64,000 nucleotides of DNA from Candidatus Latescibacterota bacterium (GTDB lineage: Bacteria > Latescibacterota > UBA2968). This document shows positions 40,157-45,927 of this stretch, piece after piece. The stretch lies in NCBI GenBank assembly GCA_965222605.1, contig OZ244960.1:672001-736000 (forward strand). Direction: 5' to 3'. Under the pieces are notes generated by a model. The model saw nothing but the letters and a program-made list of their open reading frames with translations, did not search any database and was not told the DNA's origin. Position numbers and translations under genes: made by a program. The first letter of the stretch is position 1, and each line of letters starts with the position of its first letter.

Positions 40157-40196
40157 AAAAAAAGAGCGGCAGGTTGCAAAAACCCACCACTCTTTT
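40157..40196 (-). terminator. Intrinsic terminator after the mini-RNAP gene
   Basis: Minus strand GAGUGGUGGGUU-loop-AACCUGCCGCUC plus U tract; the G-U pairs work only on this strand. Confidence 0.7.
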
Positions 40197-40217
40197 GTGT
40201 GTTCAATCGTCCTCTTT

Positions 40218-43200
40218 TTAATCGTCTATCGGCAACCCCACAAATAACCGGCTATACTCATCCGTCAACGGATCGCGCTCGCCCTTTTGCGCTGCGCGGG
40301 CAAATACCACACCCGGCGTTTCCGACCTGCGTGCCCGCGCCAAAACGCCATACCCACCGGGCGCACTCTGCGTCTCCAGATCGCCCTGAATCGCTATCAT
40401 CTCTGCCAGCGCATTGGCCAAACCCCAGCGCGCACCAATCGCCCGCGCAAAAAGCTCCTCTGGCGTCAGCCCCTCCCTAAAACCGTGCTTCAGAGGCGTA
40501 AACTCACCCTGATCATTTCGCGTCACGCCCTGAGGAGCCACATACAGCCTGACTTGCTGCCAATTGGCACGCGCACCACATTCCACCAGAAGCGCGGGAA
40601 TCCCGAGTTCATCATCGTCATATCCGCGAAATCGAGCCAACACAGCCGACACCTCATCGGGATAATCGCGCCAGACATCTGGATCATCGCCCTCTGGCGG
40701 ATCGGGACAATCAAGCGACAAACCGATAAAAGCACTCATCGATGCCCCTGTCTTGCGCGCGACATCAAAACCCCGATCCCACAATCGCGTAGCCAGATCC
40801 AATGCAGCCTTCGCACCATCGCGCGCCATCGCATCCGCCATCCAGCCCATCACCTGATACTTATCGACAAACAACCCCTTTCGCTCAACCTCATCGCCGA
40901 CAATCGACGCAATCTCCTGCAACCCCTCATCCGTCATACTCATATACGCCAGGCCAAACAGCGCGTCGTGCATCGGGTGTACCTTCTCCCGTGCAATCAG
41001 CCCCGGATCCCGATTCAGATGCGCCACTGCCGACAGATGCGCCTCAGCCGACCGCTGGCCTACTTCAGTCACCGGCACAAAAATCGCCACCTGATCGCCA
41101 TCAAAATCCAAATTCATCATCTTGCAAATCGCCACACACACGCGAATTGCATCACCTTCCACGCGCACCGGACGACACGCCACAAAAGCCATTGGCGAAA
41201 ACGCGGGATTGCGAAGCACAACAGTCCATAACCCAGCCATAGCCGCATCCAGAGCTTCCTCCGCTTTTCTCGACCGCCTATCCACTTCTTCAGCCCCCAC
41301 CTCTCGCGCAGCAAACGGCCCAAACAATGTCCATGCCATTTCCTCGGGCACACCGACCTGATCGTATCGCAATTCGGGCGCAGGCGCAGCCACCGAACGC
41401 CCGCTGAACAACGCATGCGCCTGAAATTGCAAACGCGACAACTCGCAAAATGCGCGAACCCGCTCAGATAGCGTTTCAACCGCGCGATCCACCAATATAT
41501 CTGGCGCGCCATTGGCAATCATCTCACTCAAGCGGTCATTGGCCTCCCGCAATGCGCTGGGCACATCTCTCCCGCTCACATGTGTCAACGAATGCCCCGG
41601 CAGCCACGGATGCGGAACCGAGCGCGCAAGCGCGACATCCCCATCGCGTTTCAACGAAAACTCTACGCCGCGTTCATCCAGCGCAACTGCCACTCCACCT
41701 TTTGACAAATGCCCAATTAGATCATCAAACTGAGGGGACGGCGCAGTGGGGACAACAGATCCTGCAACGACGCGGTCAGATAGGGTATCAGCATCGTCTC
41801 GATCCACCGCGCACGTATTGAACAAATCGCCAATCACCCCAAAAGCACCCACTTCTCGCAACGCCAAAAACTCTGTCTCACCCAACCCTTGATCGCGTTG
41901 ATCCGGCTTCACACCCATGTGAATTTTATCTGCGGCCAGATGCAACGTGCGCCCCCAATACACCCACCCCACAGTGGTGCGACGCGGCAGCGTTTCCCCA
42001 TTTAGCGTCAGCGTCTCCATGCCATCTTCTGCCAGCCCATTAGCACTCAAACGAGTGCGTATCTCATCGTCTTTCGGCGCACTGAGCACGGGAACAATAA
42101 CCGGCTCTCCCTCGGCTTTTGCAATGCGCCCGGCCACAGCTTCACGCACCTGCCCAATATTCAACCGCGACGGCAAACCACACACACTCACAATCAGTTC
42201 CACAGGCGTGCCATCCGACAATTTGGGCATCTCTTCATCTTTCACAATGCGCGACACCACACCCTTAAAACCGTGTCGATTGCTCAGTTTATCGCCCGGC
42301 GCAACGCGATTGGGCAACATCATCCGGTTCGCAGCGGACTCACTAATCACAAGCGCGTCTTCGTGCGCATCCCCATTCCACGCCATAAACGCGGTCAGCA
42401 AATTGTACCCCGTCCAAAAATGCGGATCGCGCGGTTCACACCCCGTTTGCACCAACGCGGGTTCCGACTCCAGCGCTTTGCCGTCATATTGCGCGTGATA
42501 CATATGCCACACGCCCTGCTCATCGCGCTGCATATCGGGTCCCGGAGCACCAATCCACTGTCGCATCATATTCACACCCATCAAAACGCGATTGGTATCA
42601 TTGTGTTCCAAAAACGGAACCACCGAAGCACCTATGCCCAGCCGCTTTTTAGGGGCATCGTCTTCAATCACCAGTTTGCCATCGCGAATAGTCGCCCCCT
42701 GAGCCACCTCTAAAATCCGCGCGAGATTCGGTCCCTCAGGCGTGCAATAAGGACACACGCGCCCATCGTGTGACGGATGATAGTAATTTTCTATCCCCTC
42801 ATCGGCCTCACCAATAATTGGGATCAACGTCACCCGCCGCAAATGAACGTGCATATCCTGCCAATTGGTCGCCTGCAAATACTGAGAGGTCGGTTCTTCC
42901 GTAAAAAACGCATAAATCCAATCTCCCAACGGCATCCATGTTTCAACTGCTTCTCCCAGCAGTTCTGGCATATTTTCCAACCGCTCGGCAATATAATCGC
43001 GCACTTGCTCGCCCACACACCGAATTTCAGCGCACGCCAAATCCACCTCAGTCGGCGCGGGAACTACCGTTCGAAAAAAGCCATCCACTTTAAACCGCCC
43101 CCATTCATCGGGCTGAGGGATATTTTTGTACACAACCTCTTGTCCGCCCTGAACCGCGAGATGCAATTCACAGGTGTACTCATCCACCGACATCACCCGA

Positions 43201-43307
43201 TAACCCGCCAGCGACACTCTATCCGCCAACAATTCGGGCAACCCCTTTTGAACAAATACATCCCACGAAATTTTATGCCACGGTGCCTTCACCGAAAGAC
43301 TCATCAA
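40218..43307 (-). CDS. Miniaturised single-chain RpoB-RpoC (beta-beta') RNA polymerase-like protein
   Basis: Collinear beta motifs ([63 protein letters not shown]) then beta' motifs ([23 protein letters not shown]); SD AGGAGG. Confidence 0.9.
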
Positions 43308-43346
43308 ATTCCTCCTGTCTAATTGAGGGGATGGATAAATACAATC

Positions 43347-45235: not shown

Positions 45236-45242
45236 GCCCGAC

Positions 45243-45848
45243 TCACTCGCCTTCATACCCCATTCCATACATCCGACCCCATGCCTCTGCGAGTTGCTTG
45301 CGCGCGTGGAACAGCCGCGATTTCACTGTACCCTCTGGAATCGCCAGCCGTTCGGCAACCTCTCGAAGCGTCACCTCATCTTCGTACACCATCTGAAACA
45401 CCTCGCGCTTTTCCTCTGACAACGCATCGATCAACGCCTGCAAAATGCGCCGTTGTTCAGCGCGTTCCAATTGCACATCGGGTCCCAGTGCAGCCCGATC
45501 GATCATCCATCCCGGAACGGATCGTTCTTCGTCCTCCTCATCGTAAAGCGAAGGCATTTCCAGGGGCTGCTCGCGACGGCGACTTTTACTTCGCAATTGA
45601 TTCAGCGACAGATTTCTCGCAATCCGAAACAGCCACCCGCGAAATGACCCTTGCCCCGACCATTGATCGGCCCGATTCCAAACCCTGAGAAAAACCTCCT
45701 GTGTCAAATCATCTGCTGCGACCGGATCCCGCGTCATCCAACGCAGGCTCTCGGTCACCTGTACCTGATAGCGCGCAAACAGAATCGCAAAAGCCTCTTG
45801 ATCCCGCGCCACAATCCGCTGCATTAAAATCGCGTCCGATGGTGTCAA
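45243..45848 (-). CDS. ECF (sigma70 group 4) sigma factor
   Basis: Region 2 DDLTQEVFLRVW..FRGWLFRIARN, region 4 LREVAERLAIPEGTVKSRLFHAR; TTG start 7 nt after AGGAGG. Confidence 0.92.
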   Translation of the reverse strand: MTPSDAILMQRIVARDQEAFAILFARYQVQVTESLRWMTRDPVAADDLTQEVFLRVWNRADQWSGQGSFRGWLFRIARNLSLNQLRSKSRRREQPLEMPSLYDEEDEERSVPGWMIDRAALGPDVQLERAEQRRILQALIDALSEEKREVFQMVYEDEVTLREVAERLAIPEGTVKSRLFHARKQLAEAWGRMYGMGYEGE

Positions 45849-45868
45849 AAAATATCCTCCTGTGAGAA

Positions 45869-45896
45869 TCGACACCGCCCAATGCCCAGAGGTTCA
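45869..45896 (-). promoter_or_regulatory. ECF-type (probably autoregulatory) promoter
   Basis: Minus strand TGAACC-17 nt-GTCGA just upstream of the sigma SD. Confidence 0.6.
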
Positions 45897-45927
45897 AAAA
45901 AAAGCGCAGCCCTTTGGGACTGCGCTT
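45896..45927 (-). terminator. Intrinsic terminator of the upstream two-gene operon
   Basis: Minus strand aagcgcagtccc-aaa-gggctgcgc followed by a long U run. Confidence 0.75.

Follow-up and report, generated by a model that had tools for sequence, protein, structure and literature searches.

Why should a gene for an unusually small, fused RNA polymerase (RNAP) lie in one row with a gene for a sigma factor of the extracytoplasmic function (ECF) type? The question is raised by a stretch of 64,000 nucleotides (nt) from a Candidatus Latescibacterota bacterium (assembly GCA_965222605.1, contig OZ244960.1, positions 672,001 to 736,000), the whole of which is called the window below and to whose numbering the coordinates refer. 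Its minus strand carries an ECF sigma factor gene (45243-45848), a gene for an ATP-binding cassette (ABC) exporter half-transporter in which a transmembrane domain precedes a nucleotide-binding domain (43347-45140, 597 amino acids (aa)), and a gene for a fused beta/beta' mini-RNAP (40218-43307, 1029 aa). Comparison across genomes displayed the sigma factor and the mini-RNAP as the conserved unit, and the exporter as a variable, lineage-specific cargo between them.

The mini-RNAP unites beta and beta' domains in one chain, since both Rpb2 and Rpb1 families matched within the 1029-aa protein (Pfam Rpb2_6, 1e-39; Rpb1_2, 3.1e-14; Rpb2_3, 4.2e-5). Residues 1-549 are beta-derived and residues ~580-1029 beta'-derived. 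Normal rpoB (1257 aa) and rpoC (1363 aa) genes are found elsewhere in the same genome, and the mini-RNAP gene is therefore an extra, single-copy gene. Its anatomy was mapped by BLASTP against the host's own subunits and by phmmer against chains of the Protein Data Bank. Residues 131-207 aligned with host beta 448-527 (the fork region), 216-268 with beta 600-652, 285-323 with beta 730-768 (including the E-D pair) and 334-549 with beta 1025-1257, up to the very C-terminus. Residues 590-966 aligned with host beta' 272-764, encompassing the clamp helices, switch 2, the catalytic barrel, the funnel and the first part of the bridge helix. Nothing in the chain corresponds to the flap (host beta 769-1024), to most of the N-terminal lobes of beta or to the first 270 residues of beta'; the trigger loop and the jaw are absent as well, only 49 residues following the bridge helix. 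These last 49 residues showed no significant similarity to host beta' 734-1363 (BLAST, best E 2.9); the tail at ~995-1025 looked by eye like the C-terminal conserved block of host beta', a likeness that BLAST did not support and that is not claimed here. No Pfam family matched the N-terminal 130 aa or residues 465-590. The protein holds neither the full RpoB/RpoC domain set (lobes, flap, beta' N-terminal clamp, trigger loop, jaw) nor an equivalog score: NCBIfam has no model for its family, and the rpoB and rpoC models gave 171.4 bits (vs 801) and 104.7 bits (vs 963.5), respectively.

Both catalytic double-psi beta-barrels are kept with their catalytic motifs. In alignments of 27 and 92 sequences, with a mean column identity of 46-49%, the motifs GDK..NRHG.KG (338-349), E316-D317 and D734-F-D-G-D738 as well as R637 were invariant or at least 90% conserved. 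The beta' clamp helices, the main docking site of sigma region 2 (sigma2) in RNAP, are also kept (H584-598 and H603-620 in the model), with residues N590, R592, P602 and L605 conserved. The tip of the beta flap, which normally anchors sigma region 4 (sigma4), belongs to the missing parts. AlphaFold2 with the 92-row alignment returned one compact fold (mean predicted local distance difference test (pLDDT) 93.6, predicted template modelling score 0.91, no segment below 50) with a 32-residue bridge helix (H949-980). According to Foldseek, the nearest solved folds were bacterial beta and beta' chains only, each of which matched roughly one half of the model (query TM-score 0.31-0.44), and the best viral match was a tail-protein-fused RNAP (query TM-score 0.39). 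The conservation of the active site argues that the mini-RNAP would be a working nucleotide polymerase and not just a decoy.

By its domain content, the sigma factor is a bona fide ECF-type (group 4) protein, with about 200 aa and only sigma2 and sigma4. Pfam assigned Sigma70_r2 (3.6e-18) and Sigma70_r4_2 (3.5e-15) and no region 1 or region 3 families, and the protein passed the sigma70-ECF model TIGR02937 (123.4 bits vs a cut-off of 42.9), while no equivalog or subfamily model of NCBIfam reached its cut-off. The open reading frame (ORF) is open from GTG 45875, and TTG 45848, which gives 201 aa, lies 7 nt behind AGGAGG and close to the residue from which homologs align, is the likelier start. 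Orthologs from different phyla were unusually conserved (52-60% identity, E about 1e-59), and for many of them the length of the longest contig agreed with that of a mini-RNAP match. The linkers between sigma2 and sigma4 are normally variable in ECF sigmas; here, the linker is acidic and conserved, P112, W114, D117, P123 and E128 being nearly invariant and E131 invariant in an alignment of 38 sequences. A co-encoded anti-sigma factor is usual for ECF sigmas, though not obligatory. The preliminary description of this stretch had seen no anti-sigma gene after the sigma gene, and none was found in the window or in 27 related loci.

The two genes were closely linked in all related loci with upstream sequence. 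The comparison covered 28 related loci, mostly from Latescibacterota and also from Armatimonadota (Chthonomonadales), Planctomycetota, Caldilineaceae (Chloroflexota), Spirochaetales and one unclassified bacterium. A sigma ortholog (tblastn, 43-95% identity) lay directly upstream of the mini-RNAP gene, on the same strand, in each of the 27 loci with an upstream flank, a 28th locus being a fragment of 1151 nt outside this count. An exporter ortholog (90-94% identity) was located between them in only 7 of the 28 loci, and in 16 loci the sigma gene abutted the mini-RNAP gene with a gap of about 20-120 nt. The preliminary description had presented sigma, exporter and mini-RNAP as one three-gene unit; the pair at its two ends holds up and the membership of the exporter does not.

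The slot between the two genes held different cargo in different lineages. The exporter, the sole cargo in the lineage of the window, matched ABC_membrane and ABC_tran in Pfam, and its best NCBIfam match was an MsbA-related model (372.9 bits, below the cut-off of 780.4). A different ABC gene (38% identity) occupied the slot in locus L010, and a second kind of cargo, a 396-aa protein without Pfam family, was encoded in L004 (6710-7900 of that locus). A gap of ~1.25 kb in L008, known by its spacing, was of the same size as that of L004, and the ~0.8 kb in L017 held only an antisense ORF without Pfam family. The same spacing as in L004 was also displayed by three genomes of the same genus (G079, G080, G081). 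Most lineages had no cargo. Other neighbours, in L025 and L027, were unrelated sugar-metabolism, sulfatase and kinase genes.

A survey of 168 species genomes of the phylum (E ≤1e-100 for the mini-RNAP, ≤1e-40 for the sigma factor) yielded the mini-RNAP in 64 genomes, the sigma factor in 62 and both in 61. Among the pairs listed, the sigma gene was within ~2.5 kb upstream of the mini-RNAP gene, on the same strand. A single genome, G156, had the sigma factor only, with its gene 395 nt from a contig end. One of the three genomes with the mini-RNAP only (G140) had a truncated sigma ORF next door, and the other two (G143 and G146) had other genes there, the mini-RNAP of G146 being N-terminally short. 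An 8.4 Mb genome of the same family (G071) carried two divergent pairs, each mini-RNAP beside its own sigma (C1:1427408-1431183 and 3367761-3371734; mini-RNAPs 50% and 41% identical to the query). The spread of the family was patchy, with 20 of 20 genomes in the same genus, none of 15 in genus g10 and 21 of 31 in g25. These counts are given without a statistical test because related genomes are not independent. The neighbourhood data (27 of 27 loci, the 61 genomes with both genes and the two pairs of G071) speak strongly for the dedicated pairing of sigma and mini-RNAP that had been proposed earlier.

Homologs of 1000-1060 aa were numerous, with 815 at E ≤1e-3 among 8000 candidates scored. Those named by their source were all called "hypothetical protein", under the labels Gemmatimonadota, Armatimonadetes, Hydrogenedentes and Chloroflexi. 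In a full HMMER scan of a library clustered at 50% identity, 333 representatives scored E ≤1e-30, a number that includes canonical RpoB/RpoC and their full-length fusions; about 75 of the top 150 were full-length members of the mini-RNAP family. Two Atlas clusters of the family counted 73 and 135 members. Several further unnamed Atlas clusters (1160-1790 aa) carried both Rpb2_6 and Rpb1_2, which suggests that other fused beta/beta' forms of intermediate size exist in metagenomes. A fusion of sigma and mini-RNAP was found neither among 120 listed matches (≤1068 aa) nor among those of the top 150 cluster representatives that belong to the family (≤1101 aa), no dedicated search having been made from the sigma side. 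Four longer proteins (1948-2522 aa) among these representatives matched in the beta barrel region only and are likely canonical fused RpoBC.

The pair is preceded by a promoter-like sequence that recurs across phyla. Direct reading of the minus strand confirmed the ECF-type promoter with which the operon had been said to open, TGAACC (45896-45891) and GTCGA (45873-45869) separated by 17 nt (45869-45896 as a whole), with the core TGAAC-N14-CGGTGTC at 45871-45896. TGAACC-N17-GTCGA matched once in the window, where 0.05 matches were expected by chance, and at least one match occurred in 5 of 100 shuffles; this uniqueness is weak evidence alone, but the motif is kept across phyla. When ~100 nt upstream of the sigma gene were aligned from 13 divergent lineages, TGAAC-N14-CGGTGTC was exact in 11 of them, from five phyla, and the remainder of the alignment was unalignable (mean column identity 33%). 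The exceptions, L014 and L025, were 1-2 bases off per promoter element, the alignment of L014 being gapped. The motif is thus present and conserved upstream of the sigma's own gene, as a putative site of autoregulation, and the sigma factor appears to have a deeply conserved cognate site at its own operon.

A separate regulon for a private holoenzyme, as suggested in the preliminary description, was not borne out by the genome motif scan. TGAACN{13,15}CGGTGTC had three copies in the 6.34 Mb genome of the window (reversed-pattern control, 0), and the only intergenic one was the cassette's own promoter. The other two, considered as regulon targets, were treated as chance matches because each fell within an ORF (770 and 632 aa). 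Five more complete genomes contained six copies of the pair, of which four had the motif upstream of the sigma gene, and additional matches numbered 2, 4, 4, 9 and 0 (controls 0, 1, 1, 0 and 5, respectively). One of two identical extra sites of G010 was checked and was antisense inside a long ORF. A small regulon may exist in genomes other than that of the window. A 6.7 Mb genome (G098) held ten exact matches to the promoter pattern (reversed control, 0), two of them identical 27-mers, and the extra copies may be further targets there.

Contact between the two proteins was only weakly supported by complex prediction, which used mini-RNAP residues 222-1029 and sigma residues 1-191 with their own alignments. 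The score was 0.32 (runs 0.41, 0.32, 0.31) against 0.00 for the best of three controls; the runs agreed in at least 33% of contacts with a partner pLDDT of at least 65, and no interface is given. In calibration, 58 of 80 solved complexes came up to the mark, as did 2 of 110 mismatched pairs; at scores ≤0.60, only 7 of the 80 solved complexes did so, together with both mismatches that passed. Since sigma-RNAP complexes have been solved, the pass may reflect likeness to known structures.

Contigs from metatranscriptome libraries of three studies came from relatives 90-95% identical and give a hint of expression and co-transcription. One contig of run X4 spanned 41962-44382, across the junction between exporter and mini-RNAP, and a second linked 45101-45144 to 45265-45884 (sigma to exporter), the two parts being separated by 98 other letters. 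Contigs of runs X1 and X2 joined 43320 to 45268 with 10 letters between, so that sigma ran straight into the mini-RNAP; these relatives therefore lack the exporter, and the missing cover over parts of the exporter gene in both runs is uninformative on its expression. Runs X4 and X5 are RNA libraries labelled sponge and coral metagenome, and their contigs were 90-95% identical to the sigma and mini-RNAP genes; close relatives thus occur in samples so labelled.

The layout of the locus matches that of a single transcription unit, as had been described from its co-oriented genes, short gaps and flanking terminators. The three minus-strand ORFs are separated by 102 nt (sigma to exporter) and 39 nt (exporter to mini-RNAP), with no same-strand ORF of at least 50 aa inside the gaps. 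The unit is closed by a hairpin terminator at 40160-40196 (16 pairs, 6 of them GC, loop 5, T-run), and that of the upstream gene (45952-46899) lies at 45901-45928 (12 pairs, 7 GC, loop 4, T-run), both on the minus strand. These were the top two terminator-like sites of 38000-48000, although the total of 14 such sites was not above that of shuffles (mean 10.7, standard deviation 3.5). The T-run of the upstream gene's terminator abuts the -35-like element of the sigma promoter. No Rfam family matched within 38000-48500.

We give about even chances to the following answer: the cassette is a two-protein, sigma-dependent polymerase that drives its own operon and carries a variable cargo slot. The ECF-type sigma and the single-chain, reduced RNAP made of fused and trimmed beta and beta' would form a minimal holoenzyme, in which sigma2 would dock on the retained beta' clamp helices and the sigma factor would recognise TGAAC-N14-CGGTGTC as its conserved promoter. 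RNA would be made by the fused active site of two barrels, which has a bridge helix and no trigger loop, and the gene in the slot, here the ABC exporter, would be expressed along with the cassette. The host core RNAP with this sigma may supply the first round of expression. Since no clear target other than the promoter of the cassette itself emerged, the result would be a self-driving expression unit independent of the host polymerase. A holoenzyme is the most economical reading because the clamp helices are kept in an otherwise gutted clamp and the two genes are strictly co-inherited.

Several observations weigh against this answer. The alignment to the host subunits shows the flap and beta' 1-270 deleted, and sigma4 is therefore left without its known docking site. 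The promoter nevertheless keeps canonical -35/-10 geometry, and no extra assumption would be needed for the host core to use it. The complex score is weak, and the modelled part of the mini-RNAP did not include its first 221 residues. In the many lineages with an empty slot, the module would target itself without obvious output. Genes controlled by an ECF sigma are commonly its neighbours, and a plain pair of regulator and target would thus account for adjacency alone just as well. The RNA-library contigs remain a hint because neither the strand nor the start nor the unity of a transcript can be read from them, and such libraries may contain DNA.

The main rival, favoured by the loss of the flap and by the canonical promoter geometry, is that an ordinary ECF sigma on the host core switches the operon on, and that the mini-RNAP is a regulated product working without sigma, for instance by transcribing without a promoter, by copying RNA templates, or by making primers or small RNAs. 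We consider this rather unlikely, though the points in its favour are several: the sigma factor passes the ECF superfamily model, the mini-RNAP has no known site for sigma4, and the second promoter copy that a private holoenzyme would need was not found in the window's own genome. The passages of PMC5467207 drawn on here also describe YonO, the single-chain RNAP of a Bacillus prophage, as active in elongation complexes without added factors and leave its need for a promoter factor open. Against it speak the conservation of sigma and promoter across phyla, far higher than a free-drifting pair of regulator and target needs, the joint duplication of the pair in G071, and the complex prediction (0.32 vs 0.00 for the best control), weak as it is. 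The clamp helices, moreover, are kept with conserved residues though most of the clamp is deleted, and we know of no role for them beyond docking sigma and elongation factors.

The clamp helices and the lack of an anti-sigma gene in any locus could also be explained if the mini-RNAP were itself the missing anti-sigma factor, an RNAP mimic that keeps the sigma factor bound to its clamp helices until a signal frees it, with polymerase chemistry irrelevant or secondary. The preliminary description had named this possibility, and the tight coupling of the two genes, with gaps of ~20-60 nt in most loci, would suit it. A decoy, however, needs none of the Asp triad, the beta lysine/arginine motif, the E-D pair, switch 2 and the 32-residue bridge helix that are conserved in the 92 sequences; Pfam detected no anti-sigma domain, and a protein of ~1000 aa would be a costly anti-sigma. 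Since every catalytic motif is invariant or nearly so, the pure form of this explanation is very improbable. A little less improbable, yet still poorly placed, is that a mobile element or defence system includes the cassette or has left it behind, with a polymerase serving the element as phage RNAPs do. The patchy distribution (64 of 168 genomes), the varied chromosomal contexts and the compact two-gene format with a variable cargo slot would fit such an origin, but searches of 50,697 phage records (none of 33 matching records covered 80% of the query) and of 72,556 plasmid records (none of 68), collections that are biased towards cultured hosts, yielded no member of the family. The best 80 IMG/VR matches were 20-36% identical and belonged to other RNAP lineages, and no integrase or phage genes were present among the neighbours examined. 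No PADLOC-DB 2.0 family matched the mini-RNAP, the sigma factor gave marginal matches to two CARF models only (E 4e-4 and 6e-4), and the exporter matched generic ABC-like models.

A stronger version of the self-driving holoenzyme, to which we assign a low probability, is a natural orthogonal system in which a ~200-aa sigma and a ~1030-aa polymerase would serve one private promoter independently of the host RNAP, as a back-up or insulated expression device. Under a block of the host RNAP, the cassette and its slot gene would stay expressed because the flap, the trigger loop and much of the surface used by RNAP-directed antibiotics and phage inhibitors are absent.

Two overlapping genes lie directly upstream of the cassette, ahead of the terminator (45952-47926, minus strand). 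The product of one (345 aa) carries a DksA/TraR C4 zinc finger (Pfam 1.6e-9) at its N-terminus, continued by a long extension without family, and that of the other (315 aa) has no family. DksA-type proteins bind the secondary channel of RNAP. Both genes were found beside the cassette in no more than 14 of 28 loci, all of them from close relatives (at least 86% identical in the mini-RNAP). On the other side (36976-40070, minus strand) a gene for a BlaI-type repressor (128 aa) is followed by one for a 902-aa protein that joins a BlaR1 M56 peptidase to five TonB_C repeats (Pfam 1.2e-93, in 5 stretches), whose number varies in relatives; a second BlaI/BlaR copy was found a few kb further on in L003, L008 and L015. 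GC content was 0.42-0.47 at 30000-38000 and 0.50-0.56 elsewhere in the window.

If sigma and mini-RNAP work together, no smaller sigma-dependent polymerase of the cellular (two-barrel) type would be known and, should the orthogonal system prove true, they would be the first sigma-dependent single-chain RNAP of that type. They would reveal what the 400 kDa bacterial enzyme can do without in promoter-specific transcription, offer a natural experiment on the positioning of sigma4 without a flap, and provide a compact two-gene orthogonal expression system. Whatever its function, the family is large, unnamed and present in at least five phyla of mostly uncultured bacteria, and current annotation misses it. 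The literature searched contained no description of a fused mini beta/beta' protein linked to an ECF sigma; supplements to ECF classifications and older surveys of RNAP homologs could bear on novelty. A survey of unusual bacterial RNAP homologs was reportedly made by Iyer and Aravind in 2012. The main text of the ECF reclassification paper, as far as it was covered, contained no RNAP-subunit context terms (PMC7826278).

Among known systems, the ECF holoenzyme (beta, beta', two alpha, omega and sigma) is the closest in its parts. The barrels of the mini-RNAP carry the bacterial catalytic motifs, its fork, switch 2, bridge helix and clamp helices align to host RpoB (31% identity, 234 aa) and RpoC (24%, 503 columns), and it is accompanied by an ECF-type sigma and a promoter with AAC and GTC-type elements. 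It differs in being a single chain of 1029 aa instead of 1257 and 1363 aa, in lacking the flap, most lobes, beta' 1-270 and the part between the bridge helix and the last 49 residues, and in being an accessory gene beside normal rpoBC that scores far below the rpoB and rpoC cut-offs. Natural RpoB-RpoC fusions (NCBIfam PRK14844, PRK09603) also place beta before beta' in one reading frame, but these are full-length housekeeping proteins of ~2840-2890 aa, and the mini-RNAP reached only 171.6 vs 4632 bits and 161.3 vs 5372 bits with their models.

Reduced polymerases of phages provide the other comparison. In the passages of PMC5467207 and PMC2919709 covered here, YonO of Bacillus prophage SPbeta resembles the mini-RNAP as a single polypeptide of ~100 kDa with both barrels, no recognisable trigger loop and neither flap nor lobes, YonO being also without lid and zipper. 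YonO shares few catalytic residues with cellular RNAPs, whereas the mini-RNAP is readily alignable to bacterial beta/beta' (Pfam 1e-39); YonO is prophage-borne, whereas the mini-RNAP family was not found in the phage or plasmid collections searched; and no linked sigma gene is described for YonO in those passages, in contrast to the sigma-linked mini-RNAP. The phiKZ/AR9-type phage RNAPs, as presented in the parts of PMC7598289, PMC5449584 and PMC4666361 used here, are likewise reduced beta/beta' homologs without alpha and omega, with promoter specificity of their own in the phage enzymes, but they are split over several polypeptides, phage-encoded and very divergent. On sequence grounds, the mini-RNAP is best placed outside the RpoB/RpoC equivalogs, the full-length RpoBC fusions and the YonO-like proteins, and together with its sigma factor it looks like an undescribed private transcription system shared by at least five phyla.

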